From the IMG/VR virus record IMGVR_UViG_3300049563_000052, positions 33,020 to 97,019 of that record: DNA of 64,000 nucleotides; one strand, given 5' to 3'. This DNA is from a virus. Its lineage: Duplodnaviria; Caudoviricetes. Shown piece by piece: positions 47,193 through 56,056 of this stretch. Below the pieces are notes generated by a model. It made no database searches, had not been told where the DNA came from, and worked only from the letters and a program-made list of their open reading frames with translations. Made by a program: the position numbers and the translations under genes. The number at the start of each line of letters is the position of its first letter. Position 1 is the first letter of the stretch.

Positions 47193-48073
47193 CCAGCCCA
47201 CGCCGCGCCGGGCTGGGCCGGGTGTTCGACGGCCACGACGAGCGCAACCTGCGGGAGGAGAACTTGGCCCGGCCACTGCTGGCGCGCCGCGAACTGCGCG
47301 ACATCGACCGGTATTGGCCGATGCCGTCCTACCTGACACGGCCGTTGGACCAGGGCAACACCCCGGAGTGCACCGGGTTCGGGTCCGCGCACGAGCTCGC
47401 GTTGGGCCCGATCCAGGTCGCAGGCATCACCGCCGACTACGCGCACGACCGGTACCTGCGGAACGTGGCCACCGACAACGCGGCGGGCCGGTTCTTCTCC
47501 GGCGGCGGCGCCACCGTGGCCGCGACCATGCGCGCCGCCAAAGCCGACCGGCTCATCACCGGCTACGTGTGGAACCGCGGCCTGACCGACACCGTGGACG
47601 CGCTGACCAACATCGGCCCGGTGTGCCTGGGCACCACCTGGCGGGACGGCATGTTCGACCCGTCCCCGGAGGGGCTGCTGCGGTGCGTCGGCGACGACGC
47701 GGGCGGCCACTTCTACGTGCTGGCCGCGCGGGTGCGGAACCATCCGCAGTTCGGGCGCGGCTGCTGGATGGTGCAGTCCTGGGGTAAATGGGGGGTCGGG
47801 GTGCCGCAGCTGGGCCTGTCCACCGGGTGCGCGTTCATCCGCGACGGCGACCTCGAGAATCTGCTCAAGCAGACCGGCGAGTCGGTGATCATGCGGGACT
47901 TCTTTCTGGTGCCGCCCACCCCACCCGCGGCGCCGTACTTCGCGGCGAACCGCTCCCGGGTGTTCCACGGCTTCCATCCGCGGATCCGCCGGGACCGGGA
48001 GTTCGCCACCTACGCGGAGGCGCTGGGCGCGGGGCTGCGTCCTTGCGCGAGTTGCCGACCCGGATCCGACTAG
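47189..48073 (+). CDS. Papain-like (C1) cysteine peptidase with C-terminal Ada-like Zn domain
   Basis: LDQG..ECTGF, GGHFY, QSWG; C-terminal VFH...FATYAEALGAGLRPCASCRP. Confidence 0.8.
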   Translation: MTSPRRAGLGRVFDGHDERNLREENLARPLLARRELRDIDRYWPMPSYLTRPLDQGNTPECTGFGSAHELALGPIQVAGITADYAHDRYLRNVATDNAAGRFFSGGGATVAATMRAAKADRLITGYVWNRGLTDTVDALTNIGPVCLGTTWRDGMFDPSPEGLLRCVGDDAGGHFYVLAARVRNHPQFGRGCWMVQSWGKWGVGVPQLGLSTGCAFIRDGDLENLLKQTGESVIMRDFFLVPPTPPAAPYFAANRSRVFHGFHPRIRRDREFATYAEALGAGLRPCASCRPGSD

Positions 48074-48217
48074 TGCGGTACCGTCCGCGACGGGCCGCTT
48101 ACCTCCCCCTTTGTGGCCCTGGCAAGTGACCGGCCCGACGACGCGGCAAATCGCCCACCCCCCGGCGCGCCGCCCGGCGGGCCGGTCGTCTCGGTAGGTC
48201 CCGCCCCGCCCCCCGGG

Positions 48218-48236
48218 TGTCAAGACGGCGTTGACG
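48218..48236. promoter_or_regulatory. TGTCAA-N7-TTGACG inverted repeat (copy 2)
   Basis: TGTCAAGACGGCGTTGACG, inverted near-copy of 3922-3940. Confidence 0.5.
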
Positions 48237-48272
48237 CCCCGGCGCCGTCCGGGCCGCGGCCGGGGTGACGGG

Positions 48273-48533
48273 CTAGTGCAGCGCCCACCAGCCCAGCCAG
48301 AGCGCGCCAGCGAGCAACAGCAACGCGGCCACGGCGGTCAGGTTGTAGCGGGCCCGGGTGCGCCGGGACCGGCCCCACGGTCCCCGGGTCGCTTGGGTGT
48401 AGGTGTGGGCGGCGCGGGCCCGGTAGCCGGGCGGCAGCGGGGGCAGCGGCCGCAACCACTGCCGCTCCCGCACCCCCCGCCGCCAGCGATGCCACCAGCG
48501 ATGCGGCGGGGGCCTGCGGTGCCGTCCCGCCAT
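48273..48533 (-). CDS. Basic protein with C-terminal TM
   Basis: GRHRR N-terminus, hydrophobic C-terminus. Confidence 0.55.
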   Translation of the reverse strand: MAGRHRRPPPHRWWHRWRRGVRERQWLRPLPPLPPGYRARAAHTYTQATRGPWGRSRRTRARYNLTAVAALLLLAGALWLGWWALH

Positions 48534-48537
48534 CCGC

Positions 48538-48774
48538 TCAGCCGGGGCGCACGTCAGGTAACGGGCTGCCGTAGGCCACCCAACCCTCGATCTGCCACAC
48601 GTCCTCGATCGGCGTGGTCGGCGGCTCCCGCCACGGCGACGCGTCGTGCGGCCGGTACACCTCGCACTCCCGGTTCCCGCAGTGCCCGCAGTCGGTGCCG
48701 GGCCGGTAGTGCACGTGCGTCACGGCGTCGCAGCCGCACCGGCAGGGCGGGGCGTCCGGATCGCACGGGCGCAT
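48538..48774 (-). CDS. Cys/His-rich small protein
   Basis: CRCGC...H.HYRPGTDCGHCG. Confidence 0.65.
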   Translation of the reverse strand: MRPCDPDAPPCRCGCDAVTHVHYRPGTDCGHCGNRECEVYRPHDASPWREPPTTPIEDVWQIEGWVAYGSPLPDVRPG

Positions 48775-48791
48775 CGCTCACCCCCCGCTGC

Positions 48792-49025
48792 TCACTCGGA
48801 CACGGCCGGGTAGCCACGCCACTCCGGCGGTGCAGCGTCACCGTAGACGGCGATCGCGGCGCCGATTGCCTCCCGCCGGTCCGTGTCGGACAGCGGCAGC
48901 CCGACGGTCGCCCAGATGTCGTCGCGCACCTTCTTGGGTAGCTGGTACCAGTGCGGACGGCAGGCGAACATGCGGTCCGGGACCTGCCGCCCGCACCCGC
49001 CGGGGCAGCGGTGGGTGGCGCTCAT
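48792..49025 (-). CDS. Small Zn-binding phage protein
   Basis: HRCPGGCGRQV...ACRPHWYQLP. Confidence 0.7.
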   Translation of the reverse strand: MSATHRCPGGCGRQVPDRMFACRPHWYQLPKKVRDDIWATVGLPLSDTDRREAIGAAIAVYGDAAPPEWRGYPAVSE

Positions 49026-49693
49026 TCCGCGATCTCCGACTCGAACCCGGCCGCCGGGTCGGACGCGACCGGGTTGGCGAGGATGTCGTCCACGCCTGCC
49101 CGTACCGGGTCCACCTCCGGCGGTGGCCACGGCGCGGCCCGCAGCGCGCGCCCGGCCCGCAGGTTGAACCGTTCGGCGAGCGCGATGTTCACCCCGAGCC
49201 GCAGCGTCTCCAGCATGGGCGCGTCCAGTGGGGACTGCTGCGACAGCCCGGCGATGACCTGGTCGGCGCGGTCCCGGATGGCGGCGTCGGACGGGTCGGC
49301 GGCGGCCAACCCGAGCAGCCCGCGCAGCGTCTCTTCGGTGTGCTGCCGCGCCACCTCCGCGGCCTCGTCGGTGTCCCACCCGGCCACCGAGATGAACAGG
49401 TGCCCGTCCACGGTCAGCGTGACGTAGCCGCGGTTCTCCTTGTTGAACCGCACCCCGACCTCCAGCACGGTCGGCAGCTCGGGGTCTTCGTCGGCGCCGA
49501 TCGCCGAGGCGGTGATCGCGTTGTCTTCGAGTTCGGCGAGCGCGGCGGCGTACCCCACCCGGTAGGCGTCGATGGCCAGCGGCAGCAGCGCGGAGCGTTC
49601 GACGATCAGCGGCAGCAGCGCGTCCATCTCGTCGCCGCGGACGTCGGGGACGTGCCGCCGCCACGCGGCCAAGGTGGTGTCCCGGTCGGTCAC
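49022..49693 (-). CDS. Hypothetical protein
   Basis: Coupled ORF, protein-like composition. Confidence 0.65.
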   Translation of the reverse strand: MTDRDTTLAAWRRHVPDVRGDEMDALLPLIVERSALLPLAIDAYRVGYAAALAELEDNAITASAIGADEDPELPTVLEVGVRFNKENRGYVTLTVDGHLFISVAGWDTDEAAEVARQHTEETLRGLLGLAAADPSDAAIRDRADQVIAGLSQQSPLDAPMLETLRLGVNIALAERFNLRAGRALRAAPWPPPEVDPVRAGVDDILANPVASDPAAGFESEIAE

Positions 49694-50100
49694 GATCCCG
49701 CCTCCGCATCGGCGTCGGCGGCCTGCCGGATCTCGTCGGCGAGCGCGACCCGGCGCTGCACCCGGGCGGTGGCCGGCCGCAGCCGGTCGATCAGCTCGTC
49801 GTTGGCGTGGCTGATCTGGTAGCCGGAGCGGTGCAGGGTCAGCAGGCACTCGTCGAGCAGCAGATCGACGCGCACGAACGCGGAGGCCAGGTCTGGGTCA
49901 TCCATGGGGGACATCGTGCAGGGCGGCGGCGGGCCGTCTTCGGGTTCGCGAGTGAGGTCACCGGCCGGATCGGTGGCCAGCGCCTCCAGCCCGGCCGGTG
50001 TGACTATCCAACCCGCCCGGGTGGGCCAGCCCGCTACGGCCAGTTGCAGCACGGGCAGCGGGGCAGGGGAACGGTCGTTCGTCGTGGTGGTGTCGTCCAT
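49690..50100 (-). CDS. Hypothetical protein (probably leaderless)
   Basis: TACGGT -10 (50108-50113) lies 7 nt before ATG 50100. Confidence 0.65.
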   Translation of the reverse strand: MDDTTTTNDRSPAPLPVLQLAVAGWPTRAGWIVTPAGLEALATDPAGDLTREPEDGPPPPCTMSPMDDPDLASAFVRVDLLLDECLLTLHRSGYQISHANDELIDRLRPATARVQRRVALADEIRQAADADAEAGS

Positions 50101-50107
50101 GGATGTC

Positions 50108-50149
50108 ACCGTATCGCCGCGCGCCGGGCGCGCATGGCGGGGGTACGGT
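50108..50149. promoter_or_regulatory. Divergent promoters (both TACGGT -10) flanking an operator palindrome
   Basis: GCGCGCC-G-GGCGCGCA at 50119-50134; -10 boxes at 50108-50113 (minus) and 50144-50149 (plus). Confidence 0.65.
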
Positions 50150-50270
50150 ACTCGTGCACGAATGCGAACGCAGAGGGTGGGACGGGCCCCGGGGGCCCGT
50201 CCCGACCCGGCCCCACCACGAAGTGAAGACCACCCACAACGGCGAAACACCTTCGGAAAGGAGTCCCTGA

Positions 50271-50423
50271 ATGGGCGACGCCACGGTACCGCACGCACGC
50301 ACGCCTGCACGTGCGTGTCCCTCTGTCGGAGCTGTGCGCGTGGTGTGTCTCCCCCGGTTTGTCGGTGTGTCGCGGGATCGTTCGCAGCGCGGATCGCAAC
50401 CCACCACGAGGGAGGACCCATGA
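50271..50423 (+). CDS. 50-aa leader ORF coupled to the exonuclease gene (not in the ORF track)
   Basis: GAAAGGAG RBS; stop overlaps the ATGA start at 50420; atypical codon usage. Confidence 0.55.
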   Translation: MGDATVPHARTPARACPSVGAVRVVCLPRFVGVSRDRSQRGSQPTTREDP

Positions 50424-51604
50424 TCACAACGATGGACATCGGCCCGGACTACTGGGCCGCGCCGACCGGCTGGGACTACCCGGACGGCTGGCCACGCGAG
50501 CACCCCGGCGTGTCCCCCGACGACGCCCTGGAGGTGTTGCCTCCCGGGCTCGACGACGCCGACCCCGAGCTGTGGCGGGCCTGGCGGCTGACCGGCATCG
50601 GCTCGTCGGACATCTCCGCGCTGCTCGGGCTGCACCGCCGCAAGGCCGCCATGGAAACCTGGGAGATCAAGACCGGCCGGGTGTCGGACGACCTGACCGC
50701 CTGGGACGACGACGACGCGTACACGACGTGGCAGGGCGCCGAATACGGGGTTGCGTTCGAGCCGGTGGTGCGGGACCTGTACGCGGCCAAGCACGGGCTG
50801 ACCATCGTCAAGCCGGGCACGTTCCGGTCGGTGCGGTGGCCGTGGCTGGTGGTGAACCCGGACGGGCTGATCCAGCGCCCGGCCGGGCGCTGGCCCGCCT
50901 CCGACGGCGAGGGCCCGATCGAGGGCTACGAAGGCAAGACCTGCTCGATGTGGCTGGCCGAGCAGTGGGCGGGCGGGCAGATGCCCGACCATGCCGAGCT
51001 CCAATGCCAAACCATGATGGCGGTGCTCGGCCTGGACGGCATGCACGTGCGCTGCTGCATCGGCGGGCAGTGGTCCGCCGACCGGTACGTGGCCCGCGAT
51101 GACGGGCTGATCGAAGACATCGTCGAGCTGACCCGCGAGTTCTGGTATGACCACGTGCTCACCGACACGCCGCCGCCGCCGGACGGCGGGCTGGCCTGTG
51201 AGGAATTCCTGACCCGGCGGCACCTGCACGCCGCGCACGGCCCGACCGCGGTGGCCGACCCGGACGCCGCCGCTTTCATCCTGTCCGCCTGGGCGCAGGA
51301 GCGTGCGGCCAAGACCTACGTCGACGGCGGCCGGGAGGGCAAGAACGTCGCCCGCGACCAGCTCGGCGACTTCACCGAACTGATCGACGACCAGGGCCGC
51401 ACCATCGCGACCTGGCGGCAGAACGGCCCGCTGCGGACCGCCGAGCTGCTCGCCGAGCACCCGGACGAGACCGCCCCGTTCCTGCGCAAGGTCGAGGTGC
51501 TCGACGCCGACGCGTTCGCCGAGGCGCACCCCGACCTGTACACCGCGTACCGCGCCCGGCGGCTACTGATCAAGACCCTGAAGACCACGAAGGAGAACCA
51601 CTGA
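50420..51604 (+). CDS. YqaJ/RecE-like (lambda exonuclease family) recombination exonuclease
   Basis: RLTGIGSSDISALLG, NPDG, YEGKT, LQCQTMM. Confidence 0.92.
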   Translation: MITTMDIGPDYWAAPTGWDYPDGWPREHPGVSPDDALEVLPPGLDDADPELWRAWRLTGIGSSDISALLGLHRRKAAMETWEIKTGRVSDDLTAWDDDDAYTTWQGAEYGVAFEPVVRDLYAAKHGLTIVKPGTFRSVRWPWLVVNPDGLIQRPAGRWPASDGEGPIEGYEGKTCSMWLAEQWAGGQMPDHAELQCQTMMAVLGLDGMHVRCCIGGQWSADRYVARDDGLIEDIVELTREFWYDHVLTDTPPPPDGGLACEEFLTRRHLHAAHGPTAVADPDAAAFILSAWAQERAAKTYVDGGREGKNVARDQLGDFTELIDDQGRTIATWRQNGPLRTAELLAEHPDETAPFLRKVEVLDADAFAEAHPDLYTAYRARRLLIKTLKTTKENH

Positions 51605-53046
51605 TGGCTAGGGACCTGGCCGATCGGGTGCACAGCGCCCGTCGCGGCCGCGGAGACGATCCGGCGGCGGGCAACGGACGCGAGGTCGCCCGCCAGCCCG
51701 ACGACAAGGCGTTGATCGAGGCCGTGCGGAAGATGCAGACCGAGTTCGCCAAGGCGATGGGCCCGATCCGCGGGGAGGCCGCCGAGCAGCTGGTCCGCGA
51801 CGCCACCACCGAGATCCGCCGCAACCCCAAGCTGGCGCTGTGCAACCGGGCGTCGGTGCTCGGCGGGCTCATGACGATGGCGCAGCTCGGGCTGCGGATC
51901 GGGGTGCTCGGGCACGGCTGGCTGATCCCGATGTGGAACGACAAGCGGCGCGAGCAGATGGCCACGCTGATCATCGGGTACAAGGGCTACACCAAGCTGG
52001 CCTACAACGCCGCCGCGCTGCGCGACATCCGCTCCCGCACGATCTACGCCGCCGATGAGTACGCCATCGAATACGGCACCGAAGAGCGGCTGCTGCACCG
52101 CCCGGCGATGACCGCGGACCGGGGCGAGCCGATCGGCTACTACTGCGTGGTCAACCTGAACGCGCGGCAGCCCGGCCAGCCCGGCGGGCAGATCTTCCAC
52201 TTCCGCAGCCAGCCGGAGATGGAGCTGCACCGGGACCGCTACGCCATGTCCCGCGAGTTCGACTGGTCGTCCGGCAAGCCCAAGCCGAAGTACCACGACG
52301 ACGGGCGGCCGATCATCACCGGGCCGTGGCGGGACAACTTCGAGGAGATGGCCTGGAAGACCGAGTGGCTGACGATCGCGCGGTTCGTGCCGATGTCGGC
52401 GGATCTGGAGCTGGCCACGTTCGCCGACGGCACCGCCCGGCTCGACGTGTCCCCGAACAACCGGGACGCCGCGGCTACCGGTGACCGGCTGGGGGACACG
52501 GTGCTGGACGGGGACATCGTCGAGTCCGAGGCCGCCGCCGCGGAGCCGGAGCCGGAGCGGGAGACGATCGACGTGCGCAAGTCGGAGCCGCCCGCCGACG
52601 AGCGCCCGCCCGCCGCCGACCCGGAGCCCGACGAGCAGCCGCCGATGCCGCCCGCCGACGAGCCCGCCGCGGGCAACCGGCAGGCGATGATCCGGGCCCT
52701 GTTCGCGACGATGAAGCCGTGCGGGATCTCCGATGTCGAGGCCGTGATCGTGCTGGTGTGCGCGCTGAACGGGTGGGACTTCGACGACGCGGACCACGCG
52801 CTCCCGGGGTCGCTCGACGACATCTCCGCCGAGCAGCTGACGCACGCCATGCGGCTGCTCAACCAGTGGCGCGCCGACGGCGACGAGGCGCAGATGTGCA
52901 GCCTGCTGCTGGAGCACCGGCCGGACCCGGACCACCCGGTGTGGGACCGGGTCACCGCGGCCCGCCGCGAGCACGAGAAGACCAAGGCCCCGAGCGCACG
53001 CCGGAGCCGCAAGAGCACCACCGAGAAGGAGGGCACCGATGGCTGA
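51604..53046 (+). CDS. recT: RecT-like ssDNA annealing protein
   Basis: NPKLALC, AQLGL, LIIGYKGY, GPWRDNFEEMAWKT. Confidence 0.93.
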   Translation: MARDLADRVHSARRGRGDDPAAGNGREVARQPDDKALIEAVRKMQTEFAKAMGPIRGEAAEQLVRDATTEIRRNPKLALCNRASVLGGLMTMAQLGLRIGVLGHGWLIPMWNDKRREQMATLIIGYKGYTKLAYNAAALRDIRSRTIYAADEYAIEYGTEERLLHRPAMTADRGEPIGYYCVVNLNARQPGQPGGQIFHFRSQPEMELHRDRYAMSREFDWSSGKPKPKYHDDGRPIITGPWRDNFEEMAWKTEWLTIARFVPMSADLELATFADGTARLDVSPNNRDAAATGDRLGDTVLDGDIVESEAAAAEPEPERETIDVRKSEPPADERPPAADPEPDEQPPMPPADEPAAGNRQAMIRALFATMKPCGISDVEAVIVLVCALNGWDFDDADHALPGSLDDISAEQLTHAMRLLNQWRADGDEAQMCSLLLEHRPDPDHPVWDRVTAARREHEKTKAPSARRSRKSTTEKEGTDG

Positions 53047-53485
53047 CATCGAGGAGATCCGCGAGCGGGACTGGGAGCGGCTGACCCCGGAGGGCAAGGC
53101 GCTGGCTGTGATGCTGGTCGGGCTGCGCAGCGGCAAGACGCTGCGGGAGGCCGCGGAGAAGCTGGGCGTCGTCGTCGATCACGTGGTCGACATGAGCTAC
53201 ACCGACGACAACGGCAACGTGAAGGGCCCGAAGGGCACCGTGACGCTGACCCTCGAAGTCTGCCCGGACCCCGACGGCGGGTCCGGGACGGTGCTGGTGA
53301 ACGAGAAGGTGGCGCACCGCTACCCGGAGGACCGCGGCCACGTGCTGTACACGGGCAAGAACGGCACCCTGCACACCCGGCAGGAGACGGCCGGGATGCT
53401 GTTCGCGGTCGAGGACGGCGAGATCCGCACCCTCGGCGATGGCGACGGCGACGATCCGCAACGGCGGGCCGCGCAGGCAGATTGA
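53039..53485 (+). CDS. Conserved phage hypothetical protein
   Basis: KGTVTLTLEV...LYTGKNGTLHTRQ motif. Confidence 0.75.
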   Translation: MADIEEIRERDWERLTPEGKALAVMLVGLRSGKTLREAAEKLGVVVDHVVDMSYTDDNGNVKGPKGTVTLTLEVCPDPDGGSGTVLVNEKVAHRYPEDRGHVLYTGKNGTLHTRQETAGMLFAVEDGEIRTLGDGDGDDPQRRAAQAD

Positions 53486-53497
53486 GGAGGCCGTCCC

Positions 53498-53602
53498 CCG
53501 ATGGGCTGTACCGCTCACGGCATCGGCGCGCCCGACCGCGTAGTGGAGGTTCCCAACACCACACGTTCGGGTCCAGGATGCCTACTCGTAACGGGTGGGC
53601 AT
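53498..53602 (+). ncRNA. Putative C4/CI-like structured RNA (three hairpins)
   Basis: Stems at about 53498-53526, 53531-53571 and 53578-53602; loop GGTTCCCAAC is complementary to 53729-53738. Confidence 0.4.
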
Positions 53603-53702
53603 ACCTCACACACGCACCACAAGCATCATCAGCCTCACGTGTACCAGCCGGGGAGTAGCCGAGGGGGACTCCACGGGCGTACTGGCTGAGTTATTGCTTG
53701 GT

Positions 53703-53773
53703 AAACCATAAACGACGGCCACCCCTGGGTTGGGAGCCGGGGTGGCCGTCGGAGAGGACGATCTCCATGTCCT
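53703..53773 (-). ncRNA. Putative ~70-nt cis-antisense RNA to the rep leader
   Basis: Extended -10 TGCTAACCT at 53780-53788 (minus); 12-bp hairpin 53714-53750 followed by GTTTATGGTTT on the minus strand. Confidence 0.55.
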
Positions 53774-53832
53774 GGCGACAGGTTAGCAGCAATGCACGTG
53801 CATCCGTCCACGACGCCACGCGGGTCCGGTGA
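53767..53832 (+). CDS. 21-aa leader peptide coupled to rep (not in the ORF track)
   Basis: GGAGAGG RBS at 53751-53757; MSWRQVSSNARASVHDATRVR*; TGATG overlap with the rep start. Confidence 0.6.
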   Translation: MSWRQVSSNARASVHDATRVR

Positions 53833-55121
53833 TGGACGGTGCGCAGGCGCAGATTACGGCGCGCATCTGGGAAGACCCGGAATGGCGGGCGCTGTCAGTA
53901 ACAGCGCAATGGCTATACCAGTCCGGGCTGTCACAACACGAAATCACGAAATGTGGCCTGCTGCCGCTGCGGGAATCGCGGTGGGCGGGGCTCGCCGCGT
54001 ATCTTGATATTGACGAGATACAGTCCGCGCGGAAACTCCTGGTCGATACCCGGTTCTGGGTGGTGGATGAGGAATCCGAGGAGGTGCTGTACCGCTCGTT
54101 CATGCGGACGCGCGAGGTGTGGCGCAACAACAACATGCTCAAGGCGGCGTGTCTGGCGTGCCACAGCGCCCGCGGTCCGGGGGTCCGGGCGGCGCTGCTG
54201 CGGGAGCTGCACCGCCTCCCGCAAGATCACATACAGCGGTTGCGTCCGGCCCGCAACGGGCAGCGGCGGCCGTGGCTGGTGTACGTCGAGACGATGGCCA
54301 TGCTCCGCGGTGAAGGGCCGAACGGACCCTTCATCGACAACCCGGACATCGGCCAGCTGACCCTCGACGCTGAGGCGTTCGGCGGGCAGCCGGACGGCCC
54401 GCAGTCCGTTACACCTCCGCCGAACGGCCGTACCGTCGGCGCACCCCCTGGCGATGCACCCGGTGTACGCCGGACGGCGGCTGCGGCTACTCCGTTCTTA
54501 CCGCAAGGCTTGGGGCAAGGCTTGCCCCAAGCCTTGGGTGAACATAAGAACTACGTAGTTGGTGGTACAGAAGGGCAGTTAGGTAGCTGTACCAGCGGGG
54601 TTATCTCTCAAGACGCGCGAGAAGAAACGATCATCGACGTGCCCCCGCTGTTCCCTCCGGGCTGCGGCAGCGTCGACCCCGAAGACGCGCAAGTGATCGC
54701 CATGGCCCGCAGCGAGGCGCGCAAGGCCAACCGGCTGCTCAACCAGCCGTGGCTGCACGCCGGTGCCACGGCGCTCGTCGACCGGCTGACCGCCGACTGG
54801 CCGGTGCCGCCCACCGGCAAGGTCCGCGACCAGTGGCGGGTCGAGGTGAGCACGTTGCTCAAAGACGCCATCCCCGAGGACGCCATCGCGGCCGGACTGG
54901 CGGAATGCGTCGACAAGGGCTACGGGCCGCGGGCATTGGCCACATTCGTTTTCAATCTGGCCAACCGGGGCACGCCGGATTCCCGGGCTGGGCGCGCCGT
55001 AAAAGCGACGCTGTCGCATGTCGGCCCGGATGACGGGCCGGGGCTCGCTGCGTATCTGCCGGGTGCATCATTGCGCGGCACGGCAACTCCACCACGACAG
55101 CTGGGACCCGGAAATGACTGA
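53832..55121 (+). CDS. Replication initiator (RepA-like HTH)
   Basis: IWEDPEWRALS..AQWLY...LSQ...CGLLP...RWA...VDEESEEVLYRSFMR motif of actinophage Rep proteins. Confidence 0.8.
   Translation: MDGAQAQITARIWEDPEWRALSVTAQWLYQSGLSQHEITKCGLLPLRESRWAGLAAYLDIDEIQSARKLLVDTRFWVVDEESEEVLYRSFMRTREVWRNNNMLKAACLACHSARGPGVRAALLRELHRLPQDHIQRLRPARNGQRRPWLVYVETMAMLRGEGPNGPFIDNPDIGQLTLDAEAFGGQPDGPQSVTPPPNGRTVGAPPGDAPGVRRTAAAATPFLPQGLGQGLPQALGEHKNYVVGGTEGQLGSCTSGVISQDAREETIIDVPPLFPPGCGSVDPEDAQVIAMARSEARKANRLLNQPWLHAGATALVDRLTADWPVPPTGKVRDQWRVEVSTLLKDAIPEDAIAAGLAECVDKGYGPRALATFVFNLANRGTPDSRAGRAVKATLSHVGPDDGPGLAAYLPGASLRGTATPPRQLGPGND
54504..54610. other. Probable replication origin inside rep
   Basis: 33-bp perfect palindrome at 54504-54536 built from 12-bp-spaced CAAG(G/C)CTTG units, followed by an AT-rich tract. 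Confidence 0.55.
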
Positions 55122-55845
55122 ACCGTTTGTGCCGTGGTCGCCGAAGGCGATCAAGGAACTGTGCGCGATGGTGTCGGCGGCCGACGGGGAACCGCGCGCC
55201 GATGCCGACTTCGCGATGTGGATGGGCGTCGCGACCACGAACCGATGGCGGCACGCGGAGGCCGTGCAGGCGGTGGTGCAGCTGGCCGGGCGGTGGGGCC
55301 GCTCGGACACCCGGCGGATCCAGATCTTGCCCGGCAGCGTGGACGAGGTCATCCGGGCCAACCGGCAGCAGCCGCGGGCGTGGGCGGAGCTGGAGGCGGA
55401 GCGGCCGGTCGTGGACGAGGCGACCGTGGAGCAGCGGCGCACCGCGATGGCGGCGTTCGTGCAGGGGCAGGTGGCCCGGATGTCGATCGATGCGGCGGTG
55501 TTCGAGCCGGGCGAAACCCTGGAGACGGTGCTGTCCAAGCAGGCCCGGGGCGACTACCGCGGCATCGACTGGTCGGCCGTCGACGCCTGCTCCGAGTGCG
55601 ACGAGGGGGGCATGCGCCGGGACGCGCCGGACCTGGTGTGCACCCACCCGCCGCAGGAACGTCGGGGGGCAGTCGTACAGTCGGGCGCGCATACCCACCA
55701 CGAGGGCACGACCGAAGGAGCTGACGATCATGGTGAGCACGGAGTGGGAGCGGAAGCACCGGCCGCAGCCGGGGACGGCGAGCGCGGAGCTGCTGCGCAC
55801 GGCGGCGGCGCAGGCCCGGACCCGGGGGTGGGCGGTGTTGGCTGA
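55114..55845 (+). CDS. Putative helicase loader/Rep partner
   Basis: Follows rep; C-terminal CSECD...CTH motif. Confidence 0.55.
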   Translation: MTEPFVPWSPKAIKELCAMVSAADGEPRADADFAMWMGVATTNRWRHAEAVQAVVQLAGRWGRSDTRRIQILPGSVDEVIRANRQQPRAWAELEAERPVVDEATVEQRRTAMAAFVQGQVARMSIDAAVFEPGETLETVLSKQARGDYRGIDWSAVDACSECDEGGMRRDAPDLVCTHPPQERRGAVVQSGAHTHHEGTTEGADDHGEHGVGAEAPAAAGDGERGAAAHGGGAGPDPGVGGVG

Positions 55846-56056
55846 CCTGTTCGACGCGGTGGCCGAGTCGCTGGGCGAGATCCCGAACCCGGGCCGGTGG
55901 GGCATCCCCGACCCGGTGGTCGAGCGGGACATGGCCGAGGCGTTGCGCTGGTCGCCGGTGGTGGCGCACGCGGTGCACGTGGCGGAGCGGGTGGTCGCGG
56001 ACGCGAAGCTGGCCGACGGGTCCGCGGCGCAGGCGTGGCTGGGGGATACCCGGTGA
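55730..56056 (+). CDS. Hypothetical protein
   Basis: GAAGGAG RBS, ATG 55730. Confidence 0.6.
   Translation: MVSTEWERKHRPQPGTASAELLRTAAAQARTRGWAVLADLFDAVAESLGEIPNPGRWGIPDPVVERDMAEALRWSPVVAHAVHVAERVVADAKLADGSAAQAWLGDTR

Follow-up and report, generated by a model that had tools for sequence, protein, structure and literature searches.

The combination of an antisense RNA with a short leader open reading frame (ORF) is the classic copy-number control of enterobacterial plasmids. Among phages, the nearest cis-antisense RNAs are OOP of lambda, directed against cII, and sar of P22, directed against ant; conserved inverted repeats of the DNA are a feature of phiC31. In plasmid R1, replication is controlled by the CopA antisense RNA, the tap leader peptide and repA (PMC5717011; Blomberg et al., 1992, as cited in PMC10724649), and the IncI-alpha and IncB plasmids have Inc RNA or RNAI together with a repY/repZ leader peptide, as outlined in the same two articles (PMC5717011; PMC10724649). 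In Cluster K mycobacteriophages, the start-associated sequence (SAS), a short asymmetric repeat, is found 5′ of many early-gene starts, and the paper on it leaves open whether the repeats bind a phage RNA or a protein (PMC3203893). The stoperators of Cluster A mycobacteriophages, which that paper mentions, are repeated operators (PMC3203893). Our literature searches returned no antisense RNA described in actinophages, and none controlling recE or recET. Here, we analyze a control region in front of recE-recT in an actinophage, which on sequence grounds appears to be a variant of the known countertranscript and leader-ORF control, although not a member of those systems by sequence.

The DNA that was analyzed, called the window throughout, is a 64-kb stretch (bases 33020–97019) of an IMG/VR virus record of 97,019 bp and 71% G+C, and its source is an uncultured high-GC actinophage from soil. 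The local gene map was drawn from an analysis of GC content by codon position and from family searches (Pfam, PHROG). On the plus strand, a recE-like exonuclease with a YqaJ domain (50420–51604; Pfam PF09588, E 2.7e-16; phrog_434, E 1.4e-59) is followed by a recT-like annealing protein (51604–53046; Pfam PF03837, E 4.9e-28; phrog_148, E 7e-57), a phrog_204 protein (53039–53485) and the replication initiator, rep (53829–55121). The RecE start at ATG 50420 is backed by full-length homologues of 394–402 aa, which align from residue 1. The minus strand carries a leftward operon of five genes with no assigned function. The gene at 49690–50100, last on the map and first to be read, has a codon-position GC phase that fits the minus strand, its CAT is kept in relatives L004 and L005, and it had no match in Pfam or PHROG; it is probably leaderless, with its ATG at 50100. 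Because this gene starts at 50100, positions 50101–50419 constitute a divergent intergenic control region. The features that the first-pass annotation listed for this locus are all there; what it had overlooked is the divergent arrangement with the leftward gene, a palindrome repeated around the genome, and a rightward TACGGT –10 box.

To compare this region between phages, six RecE relatives, 58–84% identical, were taken from a large protein collection and their contigs retrieved; a pattern search contributed four further metagenome contigs. The relatives all come from metagenome and Logan contigs. In other collections, a search with 4.5 kb of the DNA gave no match among GenBank phages (the nearest RecE among isolated phages is only about 34% identical), IMG/VR held no relatives by protein search or by box-pattern search, and GTDB genomes held none. 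The 14-mer CACGGTACCGCACG had 81 matches in IMG/VR, all of them unrelated and none with recE or the box nearby. The contigs that bear the cassette described below amount in effect to four lineages: the window; L004, L005, L012 and L013 (the L004 group); L009 and L011, of which L014 is a duplicate of L011; and L010. All four have the same order of elements, namely a GC-rich hairpin, a CCCCACCAC(G/A) box, a ribosome site with a start codon, a conserved element that we call Box A, a second one, Box B, a CCACCAC box, and the ribosome site and start of recE. The first-pass annotation had proposed searching related phages for this geometry, and it does recur before recE at the RecE identities given above. 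The cassette is absent from two more relatives, L006/L007 and L008. In L006 and L008, the hairpin, the CCACCAC box, the ribosome site and recE follow each other with nothing between, and in the cassette lineages about 190 nt, holding the upstream ORF start, Box A and Box B, separate two copies of the box. Since this segment is flanked by box copies and missing from these relatives, the cassette looks like a module that was gained or lost through recombination at the repeated box.

The left part of the control region is organized around two divergent promoter-like elements. On the minus strand, a –10-like TACGGT (50108–50113) lies 7 nt before the ATG at 50100 of the leftward leaderless gene. 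The same layout, TANNNT followed after 7 nt by a start codon, is also found in L004, L005, L009, L010 and L006 and is used repeatedly by this phage group. On the plus strand, a second –10-like TACGGT (50144–50149) belongs to the rightward promoter, where the block GGGGTACGGTAC is invariant in L004, L005 and L012 and the TACGGT is also present in L009 and L006. A rightward start near 50157 would give recET a predicted leader of about 263 nt. A scan of 49600–50700 for consensus sigma-70 promoters and terminators returned nothing; such a scan expects TTGACA/TATAAT and long T runs and is unsuited to this host group. Between the two hexamers is a 15-bp palindrome, GCGCGCCGGGCGCGC (50119–50133), a putative operator that is kept in L004, L005 and L012. 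Exact or 1-mismatch copies of it occur at about 14 sites of the 97-kb genome, all intergenic (the others being at genome positions 1702, 5176, 8801, 9204, 10799, 11766, 12321, 12660, 24181, 24680, 31069, 34874 and 95489). Abutting every copy is a –10-like hexamer, which leads to a leaderless start, as at several of the sites, or to a CCCACCACGA box with a ribosome site and an ATG. The simplest reading of this distribution is a repeated operator, through which a single regulator would probably act on all early or accessory genes. It resembles the stoperators and the repeats of phiC31 in that many copies of one short site, each overlapping a promoter, are spread across the early region, and differs from them in being symmetric and in abutting the –10 hexamer.

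What follows the rightward promoter varies between lineages. In L009 (2868–3230), L010 (3336–3701) and L011 (upstream of the hairpin), a 120-aa HTH-like gene lies between the divergent promoter and the hairpin and, read from the TACGGT promoter, is leaderless. This gene is missing from the window and the L004 group, where the promoter runs directly into the hairpin. L004 has, at 1727–1738, a conserved three-codon leaderless mini-ORF, ATGGACCGCTGA, placed 6–7 nt after the rightward TACGGT, with equivalents in L005 and L012 and none in the window.

The hairpin at 50179–50203 has a perfect 11-bp stem, as the first-pass annotation stated, and a 3-nt loop; its stem strength is –24.8 kcal/mol. Perfect hairpins of at least 10 bp number only nine in the 64-kb window, this one among them, and nested perfect-hairpin matches number 17, compared with 0–9 (typically about 2) in 20 Markov simulations. 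We read it as the terminator, or 3′ stem-loop, of an antisense RNA made from the minus strand. Because the window hairpin is perfect, the evidence on its strand comes from relatives only. In the same-position hairpins of the six relatives in which the stem is imperfect, the minus-strand RNA would contain 1, 2, 2, 3, 2 and 5 G-U pairs (15 in total, equivalent to about 11 independent positions), whereas the plus strand would contain none: each G-U pair of the minus strand corresponds to an A-C mismatch on the plus strand. Transitions in G:C pairs would create wobbles on the two strands with equal probability, so that a ratio of 15 to 0 points to selection on the minus-strand RNA. Consistent with this, the minus-strand fold is the more stable in 7/7 loci, by about 10–16 kcal/mol in L009 and L010 (a segment-dependent figure) and by only 1–4 kcal/mol in most others. 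These results argue that the hairpins are selected as minus-strand RNA structures. The sequences downstream of the stem do not discriminate between strands: minus-strand tails have 4–5 T in 12 nt in 6/7 loci and 1 in L011, plus-strand tails are similar in some loci, and the T content is modest on both. Outside the hairpin, RNAalifold gave no net covariation, and folding of the whole leader is not unusual (z –0.43 for the plus strand and –1.92 for the minus strand).

A different account of the hairpin would dispense with the antisense RNA altogether. The hairpin would then be a leftover, possibly bidirectional, terminator of the 120-aa HTH-like gene, Box A and Box B would be protein sites or elements of the plus-strand mRNA, and the upstream ORF would be a by-product of GC-rich DNA that is poor in stop codons. 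In L009, L010 and L011 the 120-aa gene ends right at the hairpin and the plus-strand tails are also somewhat T-rich, and the hairpin may in these lineages terminate the upstream plus-strand gene as well. L006 and L008 have, at a corresponding place, a gene of about the same size that shows no evident resemblance to the 120-aa gene; hairpin, box, ribosome site and recE come after it and the cassette is absent, so that the hairpin is also found where there is no proposed RNA gene. The 15 to 0 bias in G-U pairs is, however, not what would be expected of a DNA site or of a plus-strand terminator. Together with the evidence on Box A and on the upstream ORF that follows, this leads us to regard the absence of an antisense RNA as unlikely, though it is the alternative to which we give most weight.

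Box A, CCACGGTACCGCACG (50281–50295), reads CGTGCGGTACCGTGG on the minus strand, contains a –10-like TACCGT from 50288 to 50283, and is invariant in all sampled lineages. The TACCGT had been noticed in the first-pass annotation, and its plus-strand form, ACGGTA at 50283–50288, begins 12 nt after the A of the upstream ATG. Box A is the third-longest invariant run in the 3.2-kb four-lineage alignment, the two longer runs being inside recT. The leader around it is only 13–26% invariant, against about 55% in coding regions, and Box A is the leader's only invariant island. Whichever candidate frame of the upstream ORF is taken, Box A varies at none of the codon positions, so that the constraint is on nucleotides rather than on a peptide. 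The hexamer class to which it belongs, TAC[CG]GT, has 27 copies in the genome, and 20 of these are intergenic against an expectation of 4.2; the intergenic copies include both divergent promoters and the operator-linked promoters at genome positions 9223 and 12678. Genome-wide, the hexamer is about half as frequent as base composition predicts. The scarcity and the intergenic placement together suggest that TAC[CG]GT is avoided inside genes since it acts as a promoter –10, which argues for a real –10 in Box A and against the reading without an RNA.

The neighborhood of Box A narrows where a leftward transcript could lie. In L009–L011, the 120-aa plus-strand gene is immediately to the left of the hairpin, so that a leftward RNA would have to originate in the interval that separates the hairpin from recE and to stop at the hairpin. 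In this interval the TACCGT of Box A is the only conserved –10-like hexamer, and its distance to the hairpin is 57–78 nt in every lineage. Upstream of TACCGT there is no convincing –35 and no TGN extension. Fifteen invariant bases are more than a –10 needs, and Box A may therefore also bind a protein or act in the mRNA; that it holds the palindrome CGGTACCG and exceeds the needs of a promoter is likewise in keeping with the account in which no antisense RNA is made. We also considered Box A as part of an ECF-type or –35/–10 promoter of the plus strand; its spacing to a GAAAG element varies from 14 to 22 nt, and this candidate was rejected. A second copy of the Box A promoter core, GTGCGGTACCGT, is present at 48074–48085 on the plus strand and points rightward, in the gap that separates the rightward late operon, which ends at 48073, from the leftward operon, which ends at 48273. 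Another small or antisense RNA could start from it; folding of 48090–48280 is unremarkable. Box B, TGTCGGT-N6-GCGNGAT (50360–50381, plus strand), is found in 5/5 lineage representatives at a variable distance from Box A and is possibly a second rightward promoter (GATCGT).

Taken together, the hairpin strand bias, the invariant –10 and the intergenic hexamer class make a minus-strand RNA the best reading of the locus, close to that proposed in the first-pass annotation (about 50276 to 50175). We infer the transcription of this RNA and both of its ends from these signals, and judge it reasonably probable that it exists. The predicted cis-antisense RNA would be about 103 nt long (50173–50275, minus strand); it would begin 7 nt after TACCGT, the spacing that this phage uses, and extend 6 nt beyond the hairpin. 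The corresponding RNAs predicted in relatives are 103–120 nt with three stem-loops. Its first 20 nt would complement the start codon and the ribosome site of the upstream ORF. Rfam 15 gave no match with E up to 1 on either strand of positions 48000–56000, and neither an Rfam family nor a coding signal offers an alternative reading of the segment.

The ribosome-binding site of the upstream ORF is strong, GGAAAGGAG (50255–50263), and such a site is kept 12–19 nt before ACGGTA in all lineages. It corresponds to the GAAAGGAG at 50256–50263, 7 nt before the ATG at 50271, that the first-pass annotation had marked. The ORF itself (50271–50423, plus strand) has 50 codons, and its TGA overlaps the recE ATG at 50420 in the form ATGA, again as annotated; the codons, described there as atypical, give a GC3 of 0.66, against 0.95 in recE. 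In the relatives, the position of the stop relative to the recE start is +3 in L009 and L011, as in the window, –3 in L010 and +28 in the L004 group, placing it within 3 nt of the recE start in 3/4 lineages. The junction is TTGA in L009 and L011, and in L010 the stop lies 2 nt before the ATG. Translated, the upstream frame gives ...ATVPH... in the window, as in the L004 group, and ...PRYRT... in L009, L010 and L011, the frame in the latter three being judged by ribosome-site spacing. The upstream peptides diverge freely, and the indels of the L004 group are not multiples of three. The idea of the leader ORF as a conserved coding sequence therefore did not survive the comparison, because frame, length and peptide all differ among relatives, and the stop of the L004 group falls 28 nt within recE. 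The kept ribosome site and start codon, a stop that stays near the recE start and a peptide that is free to change fit a situation in which translation matters and the product does not.

The same data bear on whether the region could be protein-coding, as an N-terminal extension of RecE or as a real small protein. The recE frame is open upstream to 49904, and the 50-codon ORF has a good ribosome site. Against this, no frame of 50101–50419, or of 50204–50419 within it, has the codon-position GC signal of real genes (GC3 0.63–0.69, compared with 0.95 in recE), the homologues of 394–402 aa align from their first residue, the peptide is not conserved and acquires indels that break the frame, and there is no Pfam or PHROG match. 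We consider a coding role extremely improbable. An open frame as such is of little weight, and here the account without an antisense RNA gains a point: by our own estimate, DNA of 71% GC would contain an open frame of about 55 codons with a probability of roughly 0.37. What that account leaves aside is the ribosome site and start codon that are kept in every lineage.

Overlaps of the ATGA and TTGA type are the usual coupling junctions in high-GC genomes. The upstream ORF could thus serve for translational coupling to recE in the absence of any antisense RNA, and Box A would then work at the mRNA level, for instance by binding a translational repressor. The strong ribosome site in all lineages, the stop at or at most 3 nt from the recE start in the window, L009, L011 and L010, and the typical coupling overlaps are in agreement with this proposal. 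The varying frame and the L004-group ORF that ends 28 nt downstream of the recE start speak against it, the minus-strand bias of the hairpin would be left unexplained, and the ribosome site of recE is not predicted to be sequestered. This site, GGGAGG at 50410–50415, 4 nt before the recE ATG, is the one that the first-pass annotation had flagged as the exonuclease's own; its predicted unpaired probability is 0.47 in the window (0.34–0.54 in relatives), which does not support sequestration. As the recE ribosome site is predicted to be accessible, coupling cannot be essential for recE. We judge coupling without an antisense RNA quite improbable, and return to the reading in which both the ORF and the RNA take part.

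A further sequence, TGCACGTGC, had been noted in the leaders of both recE and rep. It is present in both; at recE it is a palindrome at 50306–50314, about 18 nt upstream of the antisense –10, and is kept as GCACGTGCG in L004, L005 and L012. Its conservation does not hold up, as L013 lacks it before rep, and L009, L010 and L011 lack it before recE. Its excess in the window is marginal, with 5 matches against 1.7 expected, and 4/100 shuffles reach 5. Given this lack of conservation and its differing position relative to the two minus-strand –10 boxes, we rejected TGCACGTGC as a shared operator; it looks like a chance occurrence or, at most, a lineage-specific site.

The cassette has a parallel before rep (53714–53832, plus strand). 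There, a hairpin (53714–53750) is followed by the ribosome site GGAGAGGA (53751–53758) and a 21-codon ORF (53767–53832) that overlaps the rep starts GTG 53829 and ATG 53832, and the minus strand carries an extended –10, TGCTAACCT, at 53780–53788. This counterpart, to which the first-pass annotation had compared the recE cassette, is thus real. The rep cassette is kept in L013, the sole relative with this rep gene, where the extended –10 is preserved as TGCTACTGT, the leader ORF has indels of 3 and 6 nt with the GTGATG overlap preserved, and the hairpin has one G-U pair on the minus strand and none on the plus strand. The gaps upstream of rep in L006, L009 and L010 were aligned with the window as well; at 49% identity, and with initiators that are not homologous, they were uninformative. 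Inability of the regulated gene to initiate alone holds for rep, which has no ribosome site of its own, and does not hold for recE. This lack of a ribosome site and the in-frame indels of L013 suggest that coupling may be essential at rep. Two other sequence features lie near this cassette. A 28-nt non-coding block upstream of it, AGGATGCCTACTCGTAACGGGTGGGCAT (53576–53603), is identical in L013 though the Rep proteins are 53% identical. Inside the rep gene, a perfect 15-bp inverted repeat with a 3-nt loop (CAAGGCTTGGGGCAA GGC TTGCCCCAAGCCTTG; 54504–54536) is the longest perfect palindrome of the window and could be an origin element.

From these elements, a scheme for the control of recET can be proposed. 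A palindromic operator (50119–50133) would sit between back-to-back TACGGT –10 boxes, the leftward one serving the leaderless gene and the rightward one the recET mRNA. Inside the leader of this mRNA, on the opposite strand, a small gene would run from the –10 TACCGT (50288 to 50283) to the terminator hairpin (50203 to 50179), and its RNA would at the 5′ end be perfectly complementary to the upstream ORF at its ribosome-binding site and start codon. Pairing of the two RNAs would block translation of the upstream ORF, and with it the delivery of ribosomes to recE, and would create a duplex of about 100 bp open to RNase III; the translation block or the RNase III cutting would each lower recET expression. 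The two promoters face each other at a distance of 130 bp, and transcriptional interference between them is also possible. Because recE has an accessible ribosome site of its own, the effect would more probably be a damping or a threshold than a full switch, that is, control at recE is probably partial; the same design before rep would depend more strongly on coupling. We place this complete model, an antisense RNA switch in the recE-recT control region, a little short of an even chance. The first-pass annotation had suggested an RNA-based switch on both operons. The observation behind it is confirmed and its interpretation partly supported: the recurrence of the geometry (in four lineages at recE and in one relative at rep) and the hairpin strand bias stand in its favor, whereas on/off control through coupling is doubtful for recE.

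The likeness to plasmid R1 extends to a short leader ORF with its own ribosome site that ends at the start of the main gene, to a small countertranscript, here predicted, that starts inside the leader and covers the initiation region of the leader ORF, and to a leader peptide whose sequence is unimportant. The rep cassette of the phage matches R1 closely, as rep has no ribosome site of its own. The differences are that the arrangement is found in a phage and before recombination genes as well as rep, that recE keeps an accessible ribosome site, and that there is no sequence or Rfam relationship, with no pseudoknot or CopB-like component identified in the phage. With OOP and sar, the predicted RNA would share the form of a short antisense RNA (70–100 nt) inside a temperate-phage early operon, ending at a hairpin terminator. 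OOP, however, overlaps the 3′ end of its target gene, whereas the RNA predicted here would cover the ribosome site and start of the upstream ORF; host phylum, promoter type (TANNNT only here) and the second copy at rep also set the present case apart from OOP and sar.

The CCCACCACGA box adds a second possible target. Its first copy, CCCCACCACGA (50211–50221, plus strand), comes directly after the hairpin, is invariant in L004 and L005, and has its complement within the predicted antisense RNA; its second copy (50399–50415, plus strand) leads into the recE ribosome site GGGAGG. In the window, the box is found at 50211, 50399, 55693 and 57950. Genome-wide, among 52 occurrences of CCACCACG, at least 13 sense-oriented copies lie 0–30 nt 5′ of start codons, that of recE included. 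The box is usually directly before the ribosome site, often at the predicted 5′ end of a transcript (7 nt after TANNNT), and in relatives it precedes both recE and recT. It is thus, like a start-associated sequence, an oriented repeat 5′ of many starts, and it shares with the SAS of Cluster K the position just 5′ of many start codons. It differs in that SAS, GGGATAGGAGCCC, contains the ribosome site and the CCCACCACGA box is 5′ of it, and in that one copy of the box is the template of the predicted antisense RNA. This RNA would carry 5′-UUCGUGGUGGGG-3′, the exact complement of the box, which the predicted fold displays in a hairpin loop in L009, L010 and L011, and the variant of the box (G or A at position 8) tracks the variant of the RNA between lineages. 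On these grounds the predicted RNA of about 103 nt could also act in trans and dampen the translation of all the early genes, a proposal that we regard as a long shot: the box is retained in L006 and L008, where there is no RNA gene, which argues that it does something independently of the RNA.

Should no such RNA be transcribed, what precedes recE is just a long 5′ leader of the usual kind, and the finding is minor. If it is transcribed, one actinophage would use this logic at two places, in front of rep and in front of recET, with four lineages keeping it at recET, and RNA-based control would extend to a phage group that has been viewed almost entirely through repressors and operators. As the predicted RNA is complementary to a box carried by many early genes, the role of start-associated repeats in actinophages becomes directly testable, and action in trans, if true, would give these repeats a function.
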